A DNA stretch of 64,000 bases from Parcubacteria group bacterium M10-OD1-1 (lineage in GTDB: Bacteria > Patescibacteriota > Minisyncoccia > Moranbacterales > UBA2206): NCBI GenBank assembly GCA_003056145.1, contig LSNL01000003.1, forward strand, positions 137,993 through 201,992. The letters are read 5' to 3'. Each line of letters opens with the position of its first letter. Position 1 is the stretch's first letter. The translations under genes were made by a program, and so were the position numbers. Positions 3,400-14,042 of this stretch are shown piece by piece. The notes below the pieces were generated by a model that made no database searches, was not told the DNA's origin, and saw nothing but the letters and a program-made list of their open reading frames with translations.

Positions 3400-4371
3400 A
3401 TGCATATCTTTTATCCTTTCCAATGGTTGGCAGACTGGCTGACCTTTAAATTGTTGGCTTTAAATGTAGGCTCACATTTAGCGAATTCGGTTCAGTTTTT
3501 CTTTTTTGATTCTTTTAAAATTTTAGCTTTGATTGTGGTCATTACGCATTTAATGAGTTGGTTACGCTATTATTTGCCAATTGAAAAATTGCGAGATTTT
3601 TTGACCAAACATAAATTTTACGGGTTAGATTATTTCTTGGCAACTGTTTTTGGAGCTGTTACGCCTTTTTGTTCTTGTTCATCTATTCCACTTTTCATCG
3701 GTTTTATCGAAGCTGAAATTCCTTTAGGTGTAACTTTTTCTTTCTTAATTACTTCGCCTTTAGTTAATGAAGTAGCGTTAGCTTTATTCATTGGAATGTT
3801 TGGTCTCAAAATTACGGTCATTTATGTTTTGGCTGGGATAATTATTGGAATGGTTGGTGGTTTCGTGATTGGGAAGTTACATTTAGAAAAATATGTAGAA
3901 GATTTTGTTTGGAAAATGAAAAGTCAAAAACAAAATCCAGAAGCTAAAAAACTTTCTAGAATAAAAGTTTTTAAAATAATTTCCAACGAAGCTTTTGATA
4001 TTACTAAAAAAATATCTTTGTACGTTTTGGCAGGAGTTGGATTAGGGGCATTTATTCATGGTTATGTCCCGCAAGGATTTTTTGGAAAATATTTGCAAAA
4101 AGCTGGTTGGTGGGGAGTGCCATTAGCAGTTATTTTAGCCGTACCGTTGTATTCAAACGCCAGTGGGGTTATTCCTATTGTTCAGTCCTTAGTAACGAAA
4201 GGAGTACCGATTGGAACAGCTTTGGCTTTAATGATGGCGATTGTCGGTATTTCTTTACCAGAGGCTTTGATTTTAAAAAAGGTTATTAAATGGCAATTAC
4301 TAGCTATCTTTTTTGGGATAGTTACGCTAGGTATAATTATTATTGGATATCTATTTAATATATTTTTGTAA
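3400..4371 (+). CDS. DUF318/ArsP-family permease
   Basis: 323-aa polytopic membrane protein with the hallmark TPFCSCSSIPLF cysteine motif of 'predicted permease' PF03773. Confidence 0.65.
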   Translation: MHIFYPFQWLADWLTFKLLALNVGSHLANSVQFFFFDSFKILALIVVITHLMSWLRYYLPIEKLRDFLTKHKFYGLDYFLATVFGAVTPFCSCSSIPLFIGFIEAEIPLGVTFSFLITSPLVNEVALALFIGMFGLKITVIYVLAGIIIGMVGGFVIGKLHLEKYVEDFVWKMKSQKQNPEAKKLSRIKVFKIISNEAFDITKKISLYVLAGVGLGAFIHGYVPQGFFGKYLQKAGWWGVPLAVILAVPLYSNASGVIPIVQSLVTKGVPIGTALALMMAIVGISLPEALILKKVIKWQLLAIFFGIVTLGIIIIGYLFNIFL

Positions 4372-4544
4372 TTAAATGATTGAAATTTGATGATATTATT
4401 TTGTAATGTATTATAATAACAATGGAGTTGAGTTAATAGCACTGGACAATATTTTAATCTTTGCTATAATAGAATTCAGTTTTTGAGTAGAAACAGTATT
4501 CATTAAAAATGAGTAAAATTTGAGAATAGAATTAAAATTTAGTT

Positions 4545-4617
4545 GGGCCCTTAGCTTAGTTGGTAGAGCGCCTCGTTTGCACCGAGGAGGTCAGGAGTTC
4601 GAGTCCCCTAGGGTCCA
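4545..4617 (+). tRNA. tRNA-Ala (anticodon TGC)
   Basis: Cloverleaf GGGCCCT...AGGGTCCA; anticodon loop TTTGCAC; G3:U70 alanine identity pair; T-arm GGTTCGAGTCC. Confidence 0.85.
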
Positions 4618-4655
4618 CAAAAAATAGAATAGATAAAATAGCATCTCAAATATTT

Positions 4656-4729
4656 CGGGCGATTAGCTCAGTTGGTTAGAGCGCATCACTGATAATGATG
4701 AGGTCCCAGGTTCGAGTCCCGGATCGCCC
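4656..4729 (+). tRNA. tRNA-Ile (anticodon GAT)
   Basis: Cloverleaf GGGCGAT...ATCGCCCA; anticodon loop CTGATAA; T-arm GGTTCGAGTCC. Confidence 0.85.
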
Positions 4730-4753
4730 ACTAGGATGAGAAAAGGTTTTTTA

Positions 4754-4780
4754 TTGACAAAAAATTATAATTGCTATAAT
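4754..4780 (+). promoter_or_regulatory. sigma70-like promoter for the secE-nusG-rplK-rplA operon
   Basis: TTGACA, 15-nt spacer, TGcTATAAT (extended -10) about 75 nt upstream of secE. Confidence 0.5.
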
Positions 4781-4856
4781 ATAAAGATGACCAAAAAGAG
4801 CCCGAGAGGGCTTTTAAAAAAGCCTTAAAAATAGATTTAAGATTTTAAAAAACAAT

Positions 4857-5042
4857 ATGAATGTTGTTACTAAGTTTATTAAAGAAGCTCAAGATGAGCT
4901 GAGAAAAGTTAATTGGCCATCTCGTGAGCAAGCTATAAATTATACATTGATAGTTATTGGGGTGAGTATTGCAGTAGCTTTATTTTTGGGTGGATTAGAC
5001 TATTTTTTTGAAGGCTTATTAAAAACATTTATAATAAAATAA
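4857..5042 (+). CDS. secE: preprotein translocase subunit SecE
   Basis: 61 aa with a single C-terminal TM helix; conserved position immediately upstream of nusG. Confidence 0.85.
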   Translation: MNVVTKFIKEAQDELRKVNWPSREQAINYTLIVIGVSIAVALFLGGLDYFFEGLLKTFIIK

Positions 5043-5043
5043 T

Positions 5044-5589
5044 ATGGCAAAGCAAACACAACATCATGGAAGAGCCTGGTATGTTCTTCATACTTATTCT
5101 GGCTATGAAGACAATGTGGCAAGAAACCTAAAGCAAAGAATTGAATCTATGGATATGCAAGATTTAATTTTTGATGTAATGGTTCCAATTGAAAAAAAAA
5201 TCAAAATTAAAAGTGGAAAAAGAACAGTAGTAGAAGAAAGAATTTATCCAGGTTATGTTTTAGTAGATATGATAGTTACTGATGCTTCTTGGTATGTCGT
5301 AAGAAATACTCCAAATGTGACTGGATTTATCGGCTTAGGAACAACTCCAACTCCTGTAGATCCTTTGGAAATTGAAACTTTAAAGAAGAGAATGGGAGTA
5401 GCAGAGCCTAAATATAAAATTGATGTTAAAAATGGTGATTCAGTTAAAATTATTGACGGTCCCTTCAAAGAATTTGATGGAAAGATTGACGAAATAGATG
5501 AAGAGAAAGGGAGAGTAAAGGTTCTAGTTTCAATCTTTGGAAGAGAAACTCCAGTAGAATTAGATTTCTTACAAATTAATAAATTATAA
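5044..5589 (+). CDS. nusG: transcription termination/antitermination factor NusG
   Basis: NGN domain (WYVLHTYSGYE) followed by a KOW motif; secE-nusG-rplK-rplA synteny. Confidence 0.9.
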   Translation: MAKQTQHHGRAWYVLHTYSGYEDNVARNLKQRIESMDMQDLIFDVMVPIEKKIKIKSGKRTVVEERIYPGYVLVDMIVTDASWYVVRNTPNVTGFIGLGTTPTPVDPLEIETLKKRMGVAEPKYKIDVKNGDSVKIIDGPFKEFDGKIDEIDEEKGRVKVLVSIFGRETPVELDFLQINKL

Positions 5590-5648
5590 ATATTTATATT
5601 TTACAATCTTTATCAGTTAGAAAATTGTAAAATTAGCAGATAAAATAT

Positions 5649-6074
5649 ATGGCTAAAAAAATTAAAACAATTATTAAATTGCAAATTCCAGCTGGAAAAG
5701 CTAATCCAGCTCCTCCTGTTGGACCAGCTTTGGGTCAACATGGTTTAAATATTCAAGAATTTTGCACTAGATTTAATGATGCAACGAAAGATAAAATGGG
5801 TGATATTATCCCAGCAGAAATTACAGTTTTTGAAGATAGATCTTTTGATTTTATCCTAAAAACTCCTCCTGCTTCGGATTTATTAAAAAAAGCAGCGGGA
5901 GTAACTAAAGGAGCAGGAAATCCTTTGAAAGATAAAGTGGGTAAAATTACTAAAGGACAATTAAAAGAAATTGCTAAAAAGAAAATGCCTGATATCAATG
6001 CTAATGATATTGAAGCAGCTATGAAAATTGTTTGTGGAACGGCTAAATCAATGGGAATAAAAATAGAAGAATAA
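5649..6074 (+). CDS. rplK: 50S ribosomal protein L11
   Basis: [35 protein letters not shown] is a canonical L11 N-terminus. Confidence 0.95.
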
Positions 6075-6133
6075 ATAATTTTTTAAATTAATTAAGTGGA
6101 AGACTTCGGTCGTTATTACCACTAAAAAAATAT

Positions 6134-6823
6134 ATGAAACATGGTAAAAAATATAGAACAGTAGCTGAGAAAGTTAATCTTGATAAGATTTATGATTTAG
6201 AAGAAGCAATAAAGCTAATCAAAGAAAATAAAATTGCTAAATTTGACGAGACAGTAGAGGTCCATATTAAATCTAATATCAACCCTAAAAAAGGTGATCA
6301 GCAATTAAGAGGAACAGTTTCTCTTCCTTATGGAACTGGTAAAACGAAAAAAATTGCAGTTATTACTACTACCCATACAAAAGAAGCCAAAGAGTCAGGA
6401 GCAGATATCATTGGGGGAGAAGAAATAGTTGAAAAAATTAAAAATGGTAAATTTTTTGAAGATAAAATTCCAGTAGATGTCTTAGTTGCCACTCCAGAAA
6501 TGATGTCAAAGTTAGCTTCAGTGGCTAAAATTATTGGTCCTAAAGGTTTAATGCCAAGTCCGAAAGCTGAAACGGTTACAACTAAAATTAAAGAAACTGT
6601 TGAAGCTTTAAAAAAAGGAAAAGCTGCTTTTAAAAATGATAATTCTGGTAATGTCCATCAGGCAGTCGGAAAAATTTCTTTTTCAGAGGAAAAGTTAATA
6701 GAAAATATTAAAATTTTTGTAGAAGGAATTGAAAAAGCTAAGCCAGAATCATTGAAAGGAAAATTAATTGCTAATATTAGTATTTGTTCTACAATGGGAG
6801 TAGGAATTAAAATTAAATTATAA
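6134..6823 (+). CDS. rplA: 50S ribosomal protein L1
   Basis: 229 aa; L1 signature region with operon synteny. Confidence 0.9.
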   Translation: MKHGKKYRTVAEKVNLDKIYDLEEAIKLIKENKIAKFDETVEVHIKSNINPKKGDQQLRGTVSLPYGTGKTKKIAVITTTHTKEAKESGADIIGGEEIVEKIKNGKFFEDKIPVDVLVATPEMMSKLASVAKIIGPKGLMPSPKAETVTTKIKETVEALKKGKAAFKNDNSGNVHQAVGKISFSEEKLIENIKIFVEGIEKAKPESLKGKLIANISICSTMGVGIKIKL

Positions 6824-6845
6824 AAAACTTTAGTTTATATCTATA

Positions 6846-6877
6846 AAAATCTGTCGTAAGGCAGATTTTTTATTTTG
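6846..6877 (+). terminator. rho-independent terminator after rplA
   Basis: AAAATCTGtc-GTAA-ggCAGATTTTTTATTTT: stem closed by a GNRA tetraloop, followed by a T-run. Confidence 0.6.
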
Positions 6878-6883
6878 AGTTGA

Positions 6884-6912
6884 CGAGAATTAAGAGAGTT
6901 GGTAAAATAAAC
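6884..6912 (+). promoter_or_regulatory. sigma70-like promoter upstream of the first dNMP-kinase-like gene
   Basis: TTGACG, 17-nt spacer, TAAAAT. Confidence 0.35.
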
Positions 6913-6944
6913 TGGTGATTAAAAAATTAAAACTTACTTAAAAA

Positions 6945-7523
6945 ATGAATAATAATAAAATTGTTATTGGTTTAATTGGTGAAAAAGGCGCTGGGAAAGG
7001 GACGGTGGCTAATTATCTAATTGAAAAATATAAAGCTGTCCATTATGGAACTTCAAAAATTTTAAGAAGGACCTTGGAAGATTTGCATGTTCCAATTACA
7101 AGAGATAATTTAGTTAAACTAGCTTTGGTTTTAAAAGAAGGATATGGCCCATCTATTATTATTGATTCTTTAATTCAGGATATGGAAAAAAATGGATCAG
7201 ATATCATCATTGCAGATGGGATTAGGATGCATGGAGATGTAGAACCATTTCGTAAAAAATATGGAAAAAATTTTTATTTAGTCTATGTAACGGCTAATTT
7301 AAAGCTTCGTTATGAAAGAACAAAGATAAGAAAGCAAAATGCTGGCGAAGAAAAAGCTACTTTAGAAGAATTTTTAGAAGAAGAAGGAAAATTGACAGAA
7401 GTTTCTATTCATGAAATTGGTCGGGGGGCCGAATTTAAACTTAATAATAATCACACAGAAAAAGACCTTATTCAACAAACCAATGAAATAATGAAACAGT
7501 TAGGTAAACAAGTAAAAATTTAA
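6945..7523 (+). CDS. P-loop deoxynucleoside-monophosphate kinase-like protein (T4 gp1-like), paralog 1
   Basis: N-terminal IVIGLIGEKGAGKGTVANYL P-loop. It is about 190 aa and paralogous to 8162..8719. The pattern resembles phage dNMP kinase (GxxRSGKDT-like). Confidence 0.45.
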   Translation: MNNNKIVIGLIGEKGAGKGTVANYLIEKYKAVHYGTSKILRRTLEDLHVPITRDNLVKLALVLKEGYGPSIIIDSLIQDMEKNGSDIIIADGIRMHGDVEPFRKKYGKNFYLVYVTANLKLRYERTKIRKQNAGEEKATLEEFLEEEGKLTEVSIHEIGRGAEFKLNNNHTEKDLIQQTNEIMKQLGKQVKI

Positions 7524-7536
7524 GAAAAAAGAGTCT

Positions 7537-7565
7537 AAAACACCTAAGAAGGTGTTTTATAAAAT
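7537..7565 (+). terminator. rho-independent terminator
   Basis: AAAACACC-taagaa-GGTGTTTT followed by TATAAAA. Confidence 0.55.
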
Positions 7566-7593
7566 TGACTAAAAAAGATAGAAAAACTATAAT
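7565..7593 (+). promoter_or_regulatory. sigma70-like promoter for the dCMP deaminase/thyX-like/tmk/mazG/gatB gene string
   Basis: TTGACT, 17-nt spacer, TATAAT; consensus-quality. Confidence 0.55.
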
Positions 7594-7657
7594 TAAAAAA
7601 AGAAGACTTAATTAATTCAAAAAATGTTTCTGAAAGGGGGTAGAGATTATAAAAAAT

Positions 7658-8140
7658 ATGAAGAATAATAGACCGTCTTGGGATGAATATTTTCTAGAGT
7701 TAGTAGAATTAGTAGGAAAACGATCTACTTGTGATCGAGGTAAATCCGGATGTGTTATCACTAAGGATAATAGAATTTTATCTACGGGTTATATTGGTTC
7801 TCCAGCAGGAGCAAAACATTGTGATGAAGCTGGACATGAGATGCATGAAGTTATTAATATAGACGGAACTCATACTAAACATTGTATTAGAACAACTCAT
7901 GCAGAGCAAAATGCTATTAGCACAGCGGCTCGTTTTGGCGTAGCTTTAGAAGGAAGCACTCTTTATTGTCATATGACGCCTTGTTATGTATGTGCTAAAA
8001 TAATTATTAACGCTGGAATTAAGAGAGTTGTTTGCAATAAAGATTATCATGCTGGAAAAAGAAGTAAGGAATTATTTCAAGAGTGTAAAATAAAATATGA
8101 ATTAGTTAATAATGAAGTAGAAACATACGAAAATATGTAA
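7658..8140 (+). CDS. dCMP deaminase (ComEB/deoxycytidylate deaminase family)
   Basis: Zinc-binding motifs HAEQNAI and PCYVCAKIIINAGI (H-A-E ... P-C-x-x-C). Confidence 0.85.
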   Translation: MKNNRPSWDEYFLELVELVGKRSTCDRGKSGCVITKDNRILSTGYIGSPAGAKHCDEAGHEMHEVINIDGTHTKHCIRTTHAEQNAISTAARFGVALEGSTLYCHMTPCYVCAKIIINAGIKRVVCNKDYHAGKRSKELFQECKIKYELVNNEVETYENM

Positions 8141-8161
8141 AGTTTTTAGTTAATAATTATT

Positions 8162-8719
8162 ATGATGAATAGAATTATTTTAGGTTTAGCGGGAGAAATA
8201 GCGAGTGGCAAAGGAACAGTTGCTCAATATATCATTGATAATTATCAAGGGAAGTCATATCGGTTTTCAACTGTTTTACGGGACATTACTAAACGAATGC
8301 ATCTTGAAGAAAGTAGAGAAAATTTACAAAAAATATCTACTATTTTTCGTCAAAATTTTTTTGATGATATTTTATCCTCAGTAGTTGCTCAAGATATAAA
8401 AAATGATGATTGTAAAACTATCGCTGTGGACGGAGTAAGAAGAATTGCTGACATTAAATATCTAAAACAATTTCCTAATTTTAAGTTAGTTTATATTGAT
8501 ACTGAAATAGAAATAAGGTATCACAGGATAACTAAAAGAGGAGAAAATACTGATGATAACAAAAAAACTTTTAGTCAGTTTCAAAAAGATCATCAACGAG
8601 AAGCTGAGTTACAAATTAAAAAACTTATAAATAAAGCGGATTTTGTTATAAACAATAATGGGAATTTTAAATCTCTTTATCAGCAAGTAGATGAAATAAT
8701 TAAAAAACTGACTAAATAA
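8162..8719 (+). CDS. P-loop deoxynucleoside-monophosphate kinase-like protein (T4 gp1-like), paralog 2
   Basis: IILGLAGEIASGKGTVAQYI P-loop; same architecture as 6945..7523. Confidence 0.45.
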   Translation: MMNRIILGLAGEIASGKGTVAQYIIDNYQGKSYRFSTVLRDITKRMHLEESRENLQKISTIFRQNFFDDILSSVVAQDIKNDDCKTIAVDGVRRIADIKYLKQFPNFKLVYIDTEIEIRYHRITKRGENTDDNKKTFSQFQKDHQREAELQIKKLINKADFVINNNGNFKSLYQQVDEIIKKLTK

Positions 8720-8734
8720 ATTTAAATTAAATAT

Positions 8735-10090
8735 ATGACTAATAAAATTTCAGCTAAACATATTACGGAAGATTTAAATCAAGGAGGATTCGTTTTAGTT
8801 CTTAATAATGGAGCAGAAATTGATGGACAAGCGGAGGCTATGCTACAAGGGCTTCATTCTCGTTCGACGGGAGGAATTAAGCATCATTTGCAGATTTTAG
8901 ATGAGAAGGGAGCTGAAAATTTTATGGAACGTTTTTATGTTGGTTATGGACATAAATCAATTGGTGATTGTGGATCAGCAACTGTTTTTGTAGAAGGGAT
9001 TTCAATGTTGGCAGCTAAAGCAATTCAAGATTGGAGATTATATTCTGGACAAGAAGCTTCAACTAGATATGTAGATTTTTCTCAGCAGAAATGTTTAGAT
9101 GCTACTAATACTAAAGAAGGCGAGAAGATTTTAGAAGATTGGATAAAATTTTATTTAGAAGCTCAAAAACCAGTTCAGGAATATCTTAAAAAACAATTTC
9201 CTAAAAAAAGTAATGAGGAAGAGGATTTATACAATAAAGCTATTAAGGCTAGAGCTTTTGATGTAACACGCTCTTTTTTACCGGCAGGAGCTACAACTAA
9301 TGTGGCCTGGAGAATGAATTTTCGTCAATTTGCAGATGAATTAATGCTTTTGCGACATCATCCCTTGGCTGAAGTTCGTGATATAGCAGAAAAAACAGAA
9401 AAAGCTTTAGGGAAAATGTATAATAATTCTTTCGGACAAAAGAGATATTCAGCTACGGAAGATTATAATCAACAATGGATGCAAAAGGGTTATTATTATC
9501 GTAATAATCAAGCCAAAGATTTTTCTCTAATTTATGATTATGTAGATCGAAATTTATTAGCTAATTATGAGGATTTTCTCAAAAATCGTCCAGCTAAAAC
9601 TGAGCTACCAATGGCTATTGCTGAATGTGGAGTTTTATCTTATGAATTATTACTAGATTTTGGTTCTTTTCGTGATTTGCAAAGGCATCGAGCTATTGTT
9701 CAAAGAATGCCTCTTTTGGTTAGGAAACATGGGTTTAACCAGTGGTACTTAGATTCTTTACCAGTAGATTTAAGGGAAAAAACTGAGAAGTTTATTAAAC
9801 TTCAAGAAGAAAGAATTGATAAAATTAAAGCTAGCGATGAAGATAAACAGTACCTAACAGCTATGGGTTATAAAGTTCCTTGCCGTTTTTCTGGAGACTT
9901 AAAAGCCTTAGTCTATTTAGTAGAGCTTCGTTCTACTCGTTTTGTTCATCCAACATTAGTAGCACAAGTTTTAAAGATAATTAAAAGTCTAAAAACATTA
10001 TTTCAAGAAAATGGTTTAGTTTTACATTTAGATGAAGAACCTAATCGTTTTGACATAAAACGAGGAGAACAAGATATTTTAGAAAAATAA
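8735..10090 (+). CDS. tandem-duplicated Thy1-domain protein (flavin-dependent thymidylate synthase ThyX-like)
   Basis: The first half aligns to ThyX: GHKS...ATVFVEGISMLAAKAIQDWRLYSGQEASTRYV versus [40 protein letters not shown]. Also TRSFLPAGATTNVAWRMNFRQFADELMLLRHH versus [32 protein letters not shown]. The second half repeats the fold with an intact RHR (FRDLQRHRAIVQRMP). Total length is 451 aa. Confidence 0.65.
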   Translation: MTNKISAKHITEDLNQGGFVLVLNNGAEIDGQAEAMLQGLHSRSTGGIKHHLQILDEKGAENFMERFYVGYGHKSIGDCGSATVFVEGISMLAAKAIQDWRLYSGQEASTRYVDFSQQKCLDATNTKEGEKILEDWIKFYLEAQKPVQEYLKKQFPKKSNEEEDLYNKAIKARAFDVTRSFLPAGATTNVAWRMNFRQFADELMLLRHHPLAEVRDIAEKTEKALGKMYNNSFGQKRYSATEDYNQQWMQKGYYYRNNQAKDFSLIYDYVDRNLLANYEDFLKNRPAKTELPMAIAECGVLSYELLLDFGSFRDLQRHRAIVQRMPLLVRKHGFNQWYLDSLPVDLREKTEKFIKLQEERIDKIKASDEDKQYLTAMGYKVPCRFSGDLKALVYLVELRSTRFVHPTLVAQVLKIIKSLKTLFQENGLVLHLDEEPNRFDIKRGEQDILEK

Positions 10091-10100
10091 ATATAATAAT

Positions 10101-10787
10101 ATGAAACGAGGTAAATTTATTGTTTTAGATGGTACCGATGGAAGTGGAAAAGCTACTCAGACCAAACTTTTAGTAAAAAAATTGAAAGCAGAAGGATATA
10201 AAGTTAGAACTGTAGATTTTCCTCAATATTATAAAAATTTTTTTGGTAAAATGATTGGAGAATGTTTGGTTGGTAAATATGGAGATTTTGTTTCCATTGA
10301 CCCTCATGTAGCTTCAATTTTATATGCAGCTGATCGATGGGAATCTAGCGAAAGAATTAAAAAGTGGCTAAAAATTGGAGATATTGTAATTGCTGATCGT
10401 TATTCTAGCTCTAATCAAATTCATCAGGGCGGTAAAATAAAGAGCAATAAAGAACGTAAACTTTTTTTGAAATGGTTAGAGAAGATGGAATTTGAAGTTT
10501 TTAAAATTCCTAAACCAGACGCAATTATTTATCTAGATGTTCCTTCTAAAATAACTAGAGAATTATTAGGGAAAGTTTCAGCGAAAAAGAAAAAATATTC
10601 TCAAGGTAAAAAAGATTTAGCAGAATCAAATAATAAATATATTCAAAATTCAAGAAAGAGTGCCACCAAGTTAGTAAGTGAATATAATAATTGGGTTAAA
10701 ATAACTTGCGTAAGACAGGATAAAATATTAAGTATAAATCAAATAGCCGATATTATTTATAGTAAAGTCCAAAATATTATTAAATAA
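10101..10787 (+). CDS. tmk: thymidylate kinase
   Basis: FIVLDGTDGSGKATQ P-loop and DRY motif (ADRYSSS) typical of dTMP kinase. Confidence 0.85.
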   Translation: MKRGKFIVLDGTDGSGKATQTKLLVKKLKAEGYKVRTVDFPQYYKNFFGKMIGECLVGKYGDFVSIDPHVASILYAADRWESSERIKKWLKIGDIVIADRYSSSNQIHQGGKIKSNKERKLFLKWLEKMEFEVFKIPKPDAIIYLDVPSKITRELLGKVSAKKKKYSQGKKDLAESNNKYIQNSRKSATKLVSEYNNWVKITCVRQDKILSINQIADIIYSKVQNIIK

Positions 10788-10809
10788 TTTCTTTAGCTAA
10801 ATTATAAAT

Positions 10810-11139
10810 ATGGAATTTAATGAATATCAAAAAAAATCGCGTAAGACAGCTATTTATCCTCAGGCTGGGAAAAATTTTATTTATCCTACCTTAGGATTGG
10901 CTGGTGAATCAGGAGAAGTAGCAGAGAAAATAAAAAAGGTGATTCGTGATAAGGAAGGAATTATTGATGAAGAGACTCGTAAGGCAGTGGAAAAAGAGCT
11001 AGGAGATGTTCTATGGTATGTTACTCAAATAGCTACAGAATTAAATCTTACAATGGATGAAATAGCAGAACATAATATAGAAAAGCTTTATAGTCGATTA
11101 GAAAGAAATAAAATAAAGGGAAATGGAGATAATCGATAA
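10810..11139 (+). CDS. MazG-like nucleoside triphosphate pyrophosphohydrolase
   Basis: 109 aa with the EExGE...ELGDVLWY all-alpha NTP-PPase motif. Confidence 0.7.
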   Translation: MEFNEYQKKSRKTAIYPQAGKNFIYPTLGLAGESGEVAEKIKKVIRDKEGIIDEETRKAVEKELGDVLWYVTQIATELNLTMDEIAEHNIEKLYSRLERNKIKGNGDNR

Positions 11140-11174
11140 TTTTATAATTAAAACAAATTTAATATTTAAATGTT

Positions 11175-12641
11175 ATGTCAAAATATACACCAGTTATTGG
11201 GATGGAAGTCCATGTTGAGCTAAAAACTAAATCTAAAATGTTTTGTAGCTCTAAAAATAGTTTAGGTTTAGAAAAAAAACCAAATATCAATATTTGTCCA
11301 GTTTGTACTGGTCAGCCAGGAACTTTACCAGTACCTAATGAGCAAGCTATTGAATTTGTTCAAATGGCTGGCTTAGCTTTAAATTGTGAGTTGGCATTAG
11401 AAAGCAAGTTTGACCGAAAGAATTATTTTTACCCAGATCTTCCGAAAGGTTATCAAATTTCTCAATATGATCAACCTCTTTGCGAAAACGGGTTACTTAA
11501 GGTTAATGGTAAGAGTGTTGGGATTACCAGAATTCATTTAGAAGAAGACACAGGAAAATTAATTCATCCTAAAGGAGTCGGTTATACTCTAGTGGACTTC
11601 AATCGAGCAGGAGTACCTTTAATGGAGCTAGTAACGGAACCAGATATCAAAACTGGGGATGAGGCAAGAGCTTTTTGTCAAAAATTACAACAAATTTGCC
11701 GTTATCTAGAAATTTCTGATGCTGATATGGAGAAGGGGAATATGCGTTGTGAAGCTAATATTTCTCTTCATCGAGAAGGGGAAGATAAATTATCAGGAAC
11801 AAAGGTAGAAGTTAAGAATATAAATTCTTTCAAGTTTGTTGAGAAAGCTATTAATTATGAAATAAAAAGACAAACTAAGCTATTGGAAAAAGGTGAAAAA
11901 GTTAAACAAGAAACGATGGGTTGGGATGCTAATAAAGGAAAAACTATTTCCCAAAGAGCTAAGGAATCAGCTCACGATTATCGATACTTTCCTGAACCAG
12001 ATATTCCGCCACTAAAGTTTACTAAAGAGACAATAGAATTATTAAAGAGAAGGCTACCAGAATTACCAGAGCAAAAAGCTAAGCGTTTTCAGGAAGAATA
12101 TCAACTTCAGCCAGAAGCTATTGAGGTTTTAATATCTCAAAAAGAGTTAGCTTCTTATTTTGAAGAAGTAGTGAGTGAGATTTTAGAAAAAATTAAAGCT
12201 GGTGAATTTAAAGCTAATCAAGAGAAAGCTTTAAAGTTAGCAGCTAATTATATTATTACAGAGTTAAGAAAACATTTAATTAACCATCACGAAAATATTC
12301 AAGCTATAAAAATTACCCCAGAGAATTATGCTGAGTTAATTACTATTTTGGCTTCTGGAGCAATAAACTCTAGTGCTGCCCAGACTATTCTTGAGGAAAT
12401 GTATAAAACAGGAGGAGATCCATCACAAATAATCGAAGAGAAAAATTTAGCGCAAATGAATGATAATGGAGAACTGGAAAAAATAGTCCAAGAAGTTGTT
12501 ATTGCTAATCAAGACTCGGTGGTGGCATATAAAGATGGTAAGAATAAGGCTCTACAATTTTTAGTAGGGCAAATAATGAAAGAAACCAAAGGAAAAGCTA
12601 ATCCAGAGAAAGCAATGAAATTGATTAAAAAGAATATTTAA
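11175..12641 (+). CDS. gatB: Asp-tRNA(Asn)/Glu-tRNA(Gln) amidotransferase subunit B
   Basis: Canonical GatB N-terminus (YTPVIGMEVHVELKT) and C-terminal YqeY-like domain; 488 aa. Confidence 0.9.
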   Translation: MSKYTPVIGMEVHVELKTKSKMFCSSKNSLGLEKKPNINICPVCTGQPGTLPVPNEQAIEFVQMAGLALNCELALESKFDRKNYFYPDLPKGYQISQYDQPLCENGLLKVNGKSVGITRIHLEEDTGKLIHPKGVGYTLVDFNRAGVPLMELVTEPDIKTGDEARAFCQKLQQICRYLEISDADMEKGNMRCEANISLHREGEDKLSGTKVEVKNINSFKFVEKAINYEIKRQTKLLEKGEKVKQETMGWDANKGKTISQRAKESAHDYRYFPEPDIPPLKFTKETIELLKRRLPELPEQKAKRFQEEYQLQPEAIEVLISQKELASYFEEVVSEILEKIKAGEFKANQEKALKLAANYIITELRKHLINHHENIQAIKITPENYAELITILASGAINSSAAQTILEEMYKTGGDPSQIIEEKNLAQMNDNGELEKIVQEVVIANQDSVVAYKDGKNKALQFLVGQIMKETKGKANPEKAMKLIKKNI

Positions 12642-12775
12642 ATCTCACAATTTTTAAAAAAATGGAGAGATGTATATAGATTTTGGTTGTTAGATTTTTA
12701 TGACTGTGTTATGATAAAAAAAATATGAAGTATTTGATATCAAAAAAGAAAGGTGTATTAAATAAGTGATTTAGG

Positions 12776-12802
12776 TGAATCGTCTTTGACGGTTCTTTTT
12801 TT
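12776..12802 (+). terminator. rho-independent terminator downstream of gatB
   Basis: GAATCGTC-tttg-ACGGTTC (one G:U pair) followed by TTTTTTT. Confidence 0.5.
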
Positions 12803-12859
12803 ATAGCTCTTTTTATATAATGAGAAATTTTAGAATAATCTAAAAAAGGGAGGTAGAAT

Positions 12860-13060
12860 ATGAATGCTGTCATTAAAAGATGTGCCTTGTGCAAAAAATC
12901 AGGAATTGATCGATTATATTTTAAAGATAGGAGTCGAGAATATTGGAGTAACGAAGAGAAGGTTAGAAAAATTGCTTTAAGTCAACATGAGTCAGATGTA
13001 TTAGAGACTGATGACCCCTTAGGTCATATTCCATTTGTTCTTTCTTGCGGTTATCATTGA
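12860..13060 (+). CDS. small cysteine-containing hypothetical protein (66 aa)
   Basis: Strong SD (AAAGGGAGG) 7 nt upstream; CxxC near the N-terminus and CGYH at the C-terminus; flanked by terminators. Confidence 0.45.
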   Translation: MNAVIKRCALCKKSGIDRLYFKDRSREYWSNEEKVRKIALSQHESDVLETDDPLGHIPFVLSCGYH

Positions 13061-13084
13061 TATAGTCAAAAAATTGGCAAAAAA

Positions 13085-13120
13085 GGGTCGAGAATATAAT
13101 CTCGGCTCTATATTATTTTT
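13085..13120. terminator. hairpin between the convergent small ORF (+) and miaA (-)
   Basis: GGGTCGAGA-atataa-TCTCGGCTC hairpin with T-rich flanks. Confidence 0.35.
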
Positions 13121-14042
13121 AGAGAAAAATTGAAACAGTTTTTTCAATTTTAGAATATCTTTCTAACCAAATTATCCTCTTGTCTTTTTGAAACCAAGTT
13201 ATTTGTCGTTTGGCGTAGTTTTTTTCCGCTAGGTAAATTTTTTCTTTTAACTCTTCTTCAGTTTTTATTTCCCCACGCAGATATTGAGGAATTAATTTAA
13301 AACTTAAACCAAAACTTTCAATTTTTTCCCAACTTAAATTTTTATGTAATCTTTTAATTTCAGTAATCATTCCTTTGCGCATTCTATTTTTGACATTTAG
13401 TTTTATTTTTTGATGTATTTCTTTTTTGGTTCGTTGAATTCCAATTTGTAGAAATTCTAAATGATTTAATGTTCTTATTTCAGGTCGTGGAACTTTACCG
13501 AGCGTTTTACAAATTTCTAAAGCTCGAATTAAACGTACTTTATTTTTCGCATCAATGTTTTTAGCACGAATAGAATCGATTCTTTTTAAGCTAGTAAATA
13601 ATTCTTCTGTACTATTTTTGCTTAATTTCTCGCGCAGTTCCCAATTAGGTTTTACTTTAGGAAAAACAACGTTATCAATAATCGCTTTAATCCAAAAACC
13701 TGTTCCTCCACAAATAATAGGAACTTTCTCGCGGTCTAAAATATTAGTAATTACTTTTTCTGCTTCTTTTTTAAATTTGGCAACACTATATTCTTCGGTA
13801 GGGTTAATAATGCTGATAAAATAATGAGAAATACCATCGCTAGTTAGTATTGCTTTGCCGTCAATAATTTTCTTTTCTATAGGCACAGCGCCACTATTAA
13901 TTTCCATTCCCTTATAAATTTGTCGGCTGTCGGCAGAAATAATTTCGCCGTTAAATTTTTTGGCAAGTTTAATAGCCATTCCAGATTTTCCCACTGCCGT
14001 CGGTCCCAAAATCACTATTATTTTACTGTTGACATTCTTCAT
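13119..14042 (-). CDS. miaA: tRNA dimethylallyltransferase MiaA
   Basis: IIVILGPTAVGKSGMAIKLAKKFNGEIISADSRQIYKGM is the canonical MiaA N-terminus. Confidence 0.9.
   Translation of the reverse strand: MKNVNSKIIVILGPTAVGKSGMAIKLAKKFNGEIISADSRQIYKGMEINSGAVPIEKKIIDGKAILTSDGISHYFISIINPTEEYSVAKFKKEAEKVITNILDREKVPIICGGTGFWIKAIIDNVVFPKVKPNWELREKLSKNSTEELFTSLKRIDSIRAKNIDAKNKVRLIRALEICKTLGKVPRPEIRTLNHLEFLQIGIQRTKKEIHQKIKLNVKNRMRKGMITEIKRLHKNLSWEKIESFGLSFKLIPQYLRGEIKTEEELKEKIYLAEKNYAKRQITWFQKDKRIIWLERYSKIEKTVSIFL

Follow-up and report, generated by a model that had tools for sequence, protein, structure and literature searches.

A probable housekeeping thymidylate operon of Candidatus Moranbacteria with a single-chain double ThyX of complementary halves

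The thymidylate synthase ThyX is of interest as a drug target and is puzzling in its mechanism, each of its active sites being built from three identical subunits. In its ordinary form, for which solved examples are available from Thermotoga maritima, Mycobacterium tuberculosis and PBCV-1, it is a homotetramer of chains of about 220–250 amino acids (aa) with four identical sites, each drawing residues from three monomers. Another gathering of related activities is the deoxynucleoside triphosphate (dNTP) synthesis set of phage T4, which comprises the deoxynucleoside monophosphate (dNMP) kinase gp1, the deoxycytidine monophosphate (dCMP) deaminase cd, td and the dCTPase-dUTPase gp56. In the ThyX of PBCV-1, Ser88 and Gln89 are contributed by one monomer and Gln75 and Arg182 by another (PMC3498832), and Ser88, Arg90 and Tyr91 of ThyX are catalytically critical, with Arg174 activating deoxyuridine monophosphate (dUMP) (PMC8316439; PMC11940539). 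Here we describe a locus on contig LSNL01000003.1 of Parcubacteria group bacterium M10-OD1-1 in which a protein of 451 aa appears to hold two diverged ThyX folds in one chain. All coordinates are positions in the window, the whole 64,000-nucleotide (nt) stretch of this contig that was analyzed. We consider it quite likely that the locus is a housekeeping thymidylate operon of Candidatus Moranbacteria, with a single-chain double ThyX whose halves complement one another.

The tandem thyX gene lies at 8735–10090 on the plus strand (coordinates include the stop codon). Its product resembles canonical ThyX in having the same predicted fold in both halves, in holding the canonical catalytic residues once its halves are taken together, in keeping the same pathway neighbors (a dUMP supply and a thymidylate kinase, Tmk) and in belonging to a family whose existing public annotation is "FAD-dependent thymidylate synthase." It differs in that a single chain of ~450 aa carries two diverged folds. 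The protein is predicted to be a divergent member of ThyX, since it scores below the NCBI equivalog cut-off for thyX.

An earlier note on this stretch, made from the letters alone, had described the protein as two Thy1 (ThyX) domains. For the N-half this was borne out directly by Pfam, the N-domain (8816–9454, plus strand, about aa 28–240) passing the Thy1 model (PF02511) over aa 47–225 with 71.6 bits against a gathering score of 24.8. The C-domain (9512–10087, plus strand, about aa 260–451), with a divergent Thy1 fold, has no Pfam match of its own and is reached only through its orthologs, through AlphaFold and through the repeated fold. Thus a Pfam scan of the C-half of the 451-aa protein gave no match, its profile retrieved no ThyX among PDB sequences (only chance matches to terpene synthases), and a hidden Markov model of the N-half found nothing significant among the orthologous C-halves. 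Comparison of the profiles of the two halves with hhalign gave a weak match (probability 8.7%) in which the aligned stretch was in register. When orthologous C-halves were scanned singly, 20 of 38 matched Pfam Thy1 with a best E value of 3e-8; these matches spanned profile positions 52–190 of 191, and two of them (27.9 and 28.7 bits) exceeded the gathering cut-off.

The full-chain AlphaFold2 model, built from an alignment of 142 sequences, had a predicted local distance difference test (pLDDT) value of 96.2 and a predicted template modeling (pTM) score of 0.93, and in it the order of secondary-structure elements of aa 10–228 recurs in aa 263–426. Compared with the PDB, the full model matched only ThyX and the homolog PolB (at rank 49), each over about half of the query with a TMq of about 0.36, and the identity of the 451-aa protein to solved ThyX structures was 15–18%. 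The C-half modeled alone with AlphaFold had a pLDDT of 92.4 and 107 structural matches at E ≤ 0.001; all 50 matches listed were ThyX, with TMq values of 0.50–0.67. It is the structure prediction that settles the matter, and the C-half is accepted as a predicted second Thy1 domain because orthologous C-halves match Thy1, the C-half model matches ThyX and the secondary-structure order is repeated. The tandem chain is best explained as having arisen by duplication and fusion of two ThyX folds. No relevant description of a tandem, fused or Candidate Phyla Radiation (CPR) ThyX was found in the literature searched, and none of the listed PDB matches, each covering about half of the query, represents a tandem protein. 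As far as this literature and the solved structures go, we have not found this fused two-domain thymidylate synthase architecture described before. The ThyX of chlamydiae is unusually long and might belong to the tandem family.

Residue equivalences were taken from a HMMER alignment to M. tuberculosis ThyX for the N-domain, and from motif inspection and profile alignment to the M. tuberculosis and Corynebacterium glutamicum sequences for the C-domain. Conservation was computed over 142 family members (33–100% identity) with numbering from these alignments, and the roles of the canonical residues follow PMC3498832, PMC8316439, and PMC11940539. The N-domain retains H73 (M. tuberculosis His69, T. 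maritima His53), S75, Q106, E107, S109 (Ser105 and Ser88, respectively), R111-Y112 (Arg107-Tyr108 and Arg90-Tyr91) and R179 (Arg172 and Arg147). At the position of the RHR motif (Arg95-His96-Arg97 in M. tuberculosis, residues 78–80 in T. maritima) it reads D99-W100-R101 (nt 9029–9037), and the dUMP-activating Arg (Arg199 and Arg174, respectively) is replaced by L205. The C-domain retains R313, the RHR motif as R317-H318-R319 (nt 9683–9691) and R399 (nt 9929–9931), which is equivalent to M. tuberculosis Arg199 and T. maritima Arg174. In it Y373 stands at the Arg172 position, and in the substrate loop L327 and V329 take the places of Ser and Arg. Unlike in canonical ThyX, a contiguous RHRx7S is absent from either domain, the N-domain having DWRx7S and the C-domain RHRx7L, and this split is family-wide.

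Among the 142 members, S109, R111, and S75 of the N-domain were invariant, with H73 conserved at 97%, E107 at 97%, Y112 at 96% and R179 at 93%; the RHR position was D (79%), then variable, then P or R, with variability also where the dUMP-activating Arg would stand. Within the C-domain R313, R317, R399, and H405 were invariant, R319 was present in 141 of 142 sequences and H318 in 89%, and the Ser, Arg and Arg172-type positions were occupied by Leu, Thr and Tyr. The canonical set of flavin-stacking His, E-x-S-x-R-Y loop, RHR, Arg172-type residue and dUMP-activating Arg is complete across the halves, at 89–100% conservation. Neither half is complete alone, because the N-domain lacks the RHR and the dUMP-activating Arg and both are kept in the C-domain. 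Judged by these alignments, each domain lacks what the other retains, the two jointly holding one full canonical residue set. The complementary pattern is family-wide and under strong conservation, and is not peculiar to one sequence. The alignments bore out the earlier reading of a first domain with DWR in place of RHR and with the downstream Ser and Arg-Tyr kept, and of a second with RHR and no Ser (a Leu stands seven residues after RHR). The fused pseudo-dimer with complementary half-sites that had been suggested agrees with the conserved split, and the aligned half-sites add up to one canonical ThyX site.

The same conservation bears on the reading that only one half is catalytic, the C-domain being a structural or regulatory pseudo-domain, or that the whole protein is inactive and thymidylate comes from salvage. 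Patescibacteria are generally thought to be heavily dependent on salvage, which was counted in its favor, as was the lack of Pfam recognition of the C-domain of the 451-aa protein. Going by their titles, PDB entries 3ge9 and 3fnn also show a Corynebacterium ThyX of atypical structure, dispensable for making thymidylate. However, an N-domain acting alone would be without the RHR and the dUMP-activating Arg that the C-domain holds. Catalytic residues that stay invariant in 142 sequences, with identities as low as 33%, point to selection for catalysis, and an inactive protein would have no use for linked dcd and tmk genes or for the fusions to dcd described below. We regard this reading as very unlikely.

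If the two halves indeed share one catalytic task, the N-domain would supply the flavin-stacking His, the Glu-x-Ser-x-Arg-Tyr substrate loop and the Arg172-type phosphate ligand, and the C-domain would supply the RHR motif and the dUMP-activating Arg. In a working site, a C-domain would then take the "Arg174/RHR" part, and N-domains those of the "Ser88 loop" and of "His53." The association of two chains would give a pseudo-tetramer (N, C, N′, C′) in which two of the sites are complete and two degenerate, in place of the four identical sites of canonical ThyX. This pseudo-tetramer is proposed because of the split residues and of the literature on residues drawn from different ThyX monomers.

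Several points weigh against the double ThyX being a thymidylate synthase of this kind. The 451-aa protein reaches 49.1 bits with the NCBIfam thyX equivalog TIGR02170, for which the cut-off is 87.9, and R43, D176, R285, D308, D314, Y338, H405, and R443 are invariant without having a nameable counterpart in canonical ThyX; they could mark altered handling of cofactor or substrate. The dimer and the count of two sites are what we infer, and biochemical data on any member of the tandem family were not found in the literature searched. The family-specific invariant residues may line the degenerate sites or the interface between domains. An invariant or near-invariant C-terminal RGxQDI tail (R443-G444-x-Q446-D-I448), again with no nameable canonical counterpart, was also observed.

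The genes around tandem thyX suggest what its substrate and product would be. The dcd gene (7658–8140, plus strand, 160 aa) encodes a predicted dCMP deaminase of the ComEB/DCTD type, with 83.7 bits to PF00383 (cut-off 25) and the zinc motifs HAEQNAI (HAE) and PCYVCAK (PCxxC) in its translation. The product of tmk (10101–10787, plus strand, 228 aa) scored 84.5 bits with Pfam and passed the thymidylate kinase equivalog TIGR00041 (87.1 vs 83.25 bits). It is followed by a mazG-like gene (10810–11139, plus strand, 109 aa) for a small all-alpha, YpjD-like nucleoside triphosphate (NTP) pyrophosphohydrolase of the MazG type (PF03819, 44.6 bits vs cut-off 22; phrog_229, E value 8e-39), whose PDB relatives are 5ie9 and YpjD (2gta). 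Polyubiquitin entries also came up for this protein with low E values and no individually passing stretch, and were set aside as an artefact of repeated weak matches and not as homology. The family assignments made earlier for the deaminase, Tmk, MazG and Thy1 all held. In the proposed pathway the dCMP deaminase would make dUMP, the 451-aa enzyme would methylate it to thymidine monophosphate (dTMP) and Tmk would convert dTMP to the diphosphate dTDP. The small MazG would probably supply or sanitize dCMP and dUMP by hydrolyzing the triphosphates dCTP or dUTP, or remove dUTP.

Among the 53 species-level loci that extend for 3 kb or more to either side of tandem thyX, tmk lies within 3 kb of it in 33, a kinase of the K family (see below) in 22, dcd in 19, gatB in 17 and mazG in 11. 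The order dcd-K2-thyX-tmk-(mazG)-gatB recurs in several Patescibacteria classes, and gatB follows tmk or mazG in many Patescibacteria. In addition, dCMP deaminase (PF00383) is fused ahead of tandem ThyX in single polypeptides of 612–635 aa (P0398, P0470, and five others, namely P0414, P0439, P0442, P0454, and P0508), and P0489 (660 aa) joins a dCTP-deaminase-like domain (PF22769) to tandem ThyX. P0398, P0470, and P0489 were re-scanned with Pfam, and the other five fusions rest on precomputed domains. Both types of fusion partner turn deoxycytidine nucleotides into deoxyuridine nucleotides, and dUMP is taken as the substrate because of these natural fusions.

The product is probably plain dTMP. 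This is by far the best reading of the sequence data, because the residue set is full, a bona fide Tmk is adjacent and the family has deaminase fusions. The earlier note had left room for a non-canonical pyrimidine, whereby the tandem enzyme would yield a 5-substituted dUMP, or methylate UMP as PolB does, with the duplicated kinases phosphorylating the product. Such a product would fit the divergence of the protein (below the equivalog cut-off and 15–18% identical to solved ThyX), the extra family-specific invariant residues, the presence among its structural matches of PolB, a UMP/dUMP methylase, and the duplication of kinases whose specificity is not assigned. Against it, all mapped canonical catalytic residues are kept between the two halves, an ordinary Tmk passing its equivalog cut-off directly follows, hundreds of Patescibacteria species carry the enzyme as their apparent thymidylate synthase, and dUMP is the substrate to be expected of an enzyme fused to dCMP deaminase or a dCTP-deaminase-like domain. 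The transferase genes (glycosyl-, amino- or other) that usually go with hypermodification are also absent from the cluster, and no positive sign of a modified pyrimidine was found in the cluster or family analyses. We judge a non-canonical product to be most improbable, and the canonical dTTP route, which had been named as the simplest explanation, is strongly favored by the retained catalytic residues, by the association of the gene with dcd and tmk across the phylum and by the deaminase fusions.

The tandem family is large. More than 3,800 close homologs of the 451-aa protein were found, all of about 450 aa, and clustering at 50% identity gave 2,022 clusters with E ≤ 0.001, of which 477 had E ≤ 1e-30; nearly all of the 150 clusters listed align over most of the 451-aa query. 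Tandem thyX was confirmed in at least 564 loci of species-level genomes. The best 80 of these loci are mostly named Moranbacteria, Paceibacterota, Nomura-, Kaiser-, Komeili-, Buchanan-, Uhr-, Magasanik-, Dojka-, Yonath-bacteria and similar, with several binned metagenome-assembled genomes among the 80 bearing other, probably unreliable, names. The nearest relatives of the 451-aa protein are named Candidatus Moranbacteria or Moraniibacteriota. Tandem ThyX seems to be the standard thymidylate synthase across Patescibacteria.

Full-length tandem forms are also present in phages, although rarely, with 5 of 50,697 phage records (all from jumbo Vibrio phages) matching at 31–33% identity and 94% coverage. 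The carriers are Vibrio phage BONAISHI (ORF269, at 5902–7344 of locus L084) and vB_VmeM-Yong phages (H2–H5). Both the two-domain architecture and the split of motifs are shared, ORF269 of BONAISHI having D-F-V for RHR with S-T-R-Y kept in its N-domain, and RHR with ELRS..VHPT in its C-domain. By fold, the 451-aa model matched a 461-aa viral protein (TMq 0.88) and the 491-aa "thymidylate synthase" of Microcystis phage LMM01 (BFVD A0A7D4, TMq 0.68). The jumbo-phage and LMM01 proteins differ in being 29–33% identical to the 451-aa protein, and those of the jumbo phages in being set among hypothetical genes and not in a dcd-K-thyX-tmk operon.

Six co-oriented plus-strand open reading frames (ORFs) and gatB occupy 6945–12641 in the ORF listing, as the earlier note had them. 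In that note the cluster was termed phage-like, which did not stand up. The 451-aa protein is encoded identically on contig LSNQ01000010.1 (GCA_003056095.1), where the cluster is flanked by secE-nusG-rplK-rplA and gatB-miaA-miaB-thrS, with dnaE farther along. No integrase or structural genes occur among the cluster neighbors, which are core translation genes. The GC content of the cluster (0.30–0.31) is the same as that of the remaining window, the genes of which are ordinary chromosomal ones that include no second Thy1 domain and no further K paralog. The locus is chromosomal housekeeping DNA and not prophage, because synteny is kept across Patescibacteria and neighbors and composition match the surroundings.

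The alternative, that the cluster is of phage origin or a defense element in which the kinase K1 and dcd form a split DcdV or dCTP deaminase that depletes dCTP, has several resemblances to recommend it. The families of K1/K2 and of dcd are the building blocks of the defensive dCTP deaminases, and the K1-dcd order mirrors the fused domains of those proteins, both of which, kinase and deaminase, are required (bioRxiv 10.1101/2021.04.26.441389; 10.1101/2021.03.31.437871). The PADLOC dCTPase model was matched by K1 (E value 1e-11) and K2 (3e-15), both in its kinase domain, and by dcd (1e-19), the same three match the NCBIfam anti-phage dCTP deaminase model (NF041025), all six proteins from K1 to MazG have PHROG matches, and a few jumbo Vibrio phages have tandem ThyX. 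The NF041025 scores, however, are 28.8–57 bits against a cut-off of 400, and here the genes are separate, with a hairpin and a promoter-like site between K1 and dcd. They stand in a housekeeping operon with core translation neighbors and without integrase, structural genes or a defense-island context, the composition is uniform, synteny extends across Patescibacteria classes, and the phage copies of tandem thyX are distant and rare. Here the deaminase would be expected to feed dTMP synthesis and not to deplete dCTP. A prophage or defense island was rejected on synteny and neighbors, and we hold a phage or defense origin to be scarcely credible.

The kinases have less settled identities. K1 (6945–7523, plus strand, 192 aa) is a P-loop protein resembling nucleoside monophosphate (NMP) kinases and appears to be a divergent, lineage-restricted paralog of K2 (8162–8719, plus strand, 185 aa), the NMP-kinase-like copy that is conserved next to tandem thyX across Patescibacteria. 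The two are 33% identical (E value 1e-38), in keeping with the second P-loop kinase paralog noted before. The copy upstream of dcd is fast-evolving, far more divergent than the thyX-adjoining copy and confined to some Moranbacteria. The K-dcd-K-thyX layout was seen again in several Moranbacteria, in loci L004, L007, L008, L014, L021, and L025 (at about 3,600–6,000 in each), with three K copies in L021 and an extra K copy downstream in L025.

The best solved relative of both kinases is Sulfolobus SSO1041 (UPF0200, "AdkA-like"; PDB 3h0k, 3lw7), matched over the full length with an E value of about 4e-11. K1 also aligns along its entire length with structures of vertebrate adenylate kinase 1 (E value 1e-5). 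PRK08356 is the best full-length NCBIfam match of both (87.8 and 61.4 bits, under the cut-off of 189). The SSO1041/PRK08356 family is itself without an assigned function, so it gives no substrate, and a literature search for UPF0200 was without result. Other NCBIfam kinase models scored 16–28 bits at best against cut-offs of 102–334, and none of the curated cut-offs for Adk, Cmk, UMP-CMP kinase, Gmk, CoaE and T4-type DNMK was passed by K1 or K2. Both appear from these scores to share the NMP-kinase fold class and to fall outside the Cmk, Adk, Gmk and UMP-CMP kinase families, and so do not prove to be the ordinary Cmk or Gmk kinases that the note had allowed for.

Nor are they closer to T4 gp1 than to Adk, as had been proposed, T4 gp1 (1dek) matching only the P-loop of K2 (E value 0.15) and the closest solved relatives being those named above. 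Pfam DNMK (PF21448) gave 19.6 bits for K1 and 23.8 for K2 over residues 7–47 only, against a cut-off of 27.1. The likeness to the T4 set lies in the gathering of NMP kinase, dCMP deaminase, thymidylate synthase and NTP pyrophosphatase activities, and in a full-length match of K2 to the phage dNMP-kinase family phrog_139 (E value 5e-18). The present set differs in being chromosomal and cellular, with a synthase of the ThyX and not the ThyA type, a separate Tmk and kinases whose DNMK match is limited to the P-loop and below cut-off.

Public names for homologs of the K family are "AAA family ATPase" or, from JGI, "dephospho-CoA kinase." Were K1 and K2 dephospho-CoA kinases, or non-catalytic nucleotide-binding partners of the dCMP deaminase, they would stand outside the thymidylate pathway as kinases. 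Apart from the JGI name, this would accord with weak CoaE matches of K2 over the P-loop region (PF01121, 28.5 bits; TIGR00152, 41.5 bits) and with DcdV, where the action of the deaminase needs a related kinase domain of undefined chemistry (bioRxiv 10.1101/2021.04.26.441389; 10.1101/2021.03.31.437871). The CoaE matches, however, cover residues 5–69 only, and the TIGR00152 score is under the cut-off of 65.55. Full-length matches are to NMP-kinase types (SSO1041, adenylate kinase 1, the UMP-CMP kinase family and phrog_139), and the conserved place between dcd and thyX argues for a deoxypyrimidine role. The translations of both kinases carry GKGT and DG[IV]R, and that of K2 also KRGENTDDN. These motifs, which we take to be typical of short NMP kinases, with KRGENTDDN presumably comparable to the short LID of AK1 and UMP-CMP kinase, likewise speak against CoaE. 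Dephospho-CoA kinase identity was rejected, the similarity being confined to the P-loop, and a role outside the pathway is in our view unlikely. K2 and its extra copy K1 are instead candidate short-LID NMP kinases, which would most likely act on a deoxypyrimidine monophosphate.

The final gene of the co-oriented run is gatB (11175–12641, plus strand, 488 aa), confirmed by Pfam and NCBIfam. Gaps between genes are 10–35 bp from dcd to gatB and 134 bp between K1 and dcd. A terminator-like hairpin after rplA (6845–6870, plus strand; 11-pair stem, then a T-rich tail) divides the ribosomal-protein genes from the cluster. Upstream of K1 is a promoter-like site, TTGACG-17-TAAAAT with extended TG (6880–6908, plus strand, 10/12 matches), and downstream of K1 is a second, TTGACT-17-TATAAT (7565–7593, plus strand, 11/12 sigma-70-like match). 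The earlier note had all seven genes sharing the latter site, but as it lies downstream of K1 it cannot drive that gene, which has its own match at 6880–6908. The site at 7565–7593 is likely to be the start of a dcd-to-gatB transcription unit, which is plausible and not proven. Promoter-like matches in this AT-rich region numbered 27 against 28.7 in shuffled sequence, and both promoter assignments are only plausible because this count is no higher than in the shuffles. The likely end of the unit is a terminator-like hairpin with a T-run after gatB (12777–12795, plus strand), found by a hairpin scan.

Between K1 and dcd there is a perfect 10-bp hairpin (7536–7559, strand unassigned), the inverted repeat TAAAACACCT...AGGTGTTTTA. 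It scored as terminator-like on the minus strand only, though it is 3′ of a plus-strand gene, and may be the K1 terminator. No Rfam families were found in 6700–13200, and a riboswitch in the K1-dcd spacer was dropped, there being no Rfam family in or around the cluster.

Some further observations were made on the surroundings. A 66-aa ORF with a CxxC motif (12860–13060, plus strand) lies between gatB and miaA; it belongs to no Pfam family and is called as a gene in each of the three copies of the present locus (L001–L003). In L002, which is another sample with the identical ThyX protein, an IS1595-family transposase (11447–12256) lies 3′ of miaB, in the place taken by thrS in L001 and the window. 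An rplK (L11)-like gene on the minus strand occurs just downstream of tandem thyX in many of the loci L035–L080, from other Patescibacteria classes. The linkage of thyX to the secE-nusG-rplKA region seems to be older than the Moranbacteria arrangement.

A bolder extension of the double-ThyX reading is possible, and is put forward tentatively as something we think doubtful. The enzyme would be an obligate single-chain "heterodimer" that forms dimers with no more than two catalytic sites. Its degenerate sites, whose invariant residues include D99, D176, D314, Y338, and the C-terminal RGxQDI, could have been recruited to a regulatory task or to the use of another reductant or one-carbon donor. 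K2 would be an uncharacterized kind of (d)NMP kinase, a free-standing ancestor from which the kinase domain of anti-phage dCTP deaminases descended. If true, such re-use would have taken place in organisms that are largely without folate and nucleotide synthesis.

The finding indicates no new DNA base and no new pathway, and the cluster itself is an ordinary CPR thymidylate operon. The interest that is left lies in how the enzyme is built, as a fused, subfunctionalized double ThyX. The tandem family would represent a natural asymmetric ThyX in which the subunit roles are allotted to two domains, which lets the contribution of each be dissected, and a clean case of duplication, fusion and complementary degeneration. 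The analysis also flags K2, a conserved partner kinase without an assigned function. In Patescibacteria, a vast bacterial radiation of which little is understood, thymidylate seems as a rule to be made by enzymes of this family, and the recognition of one canonical site split in two would aid their metabolic reconstruction.

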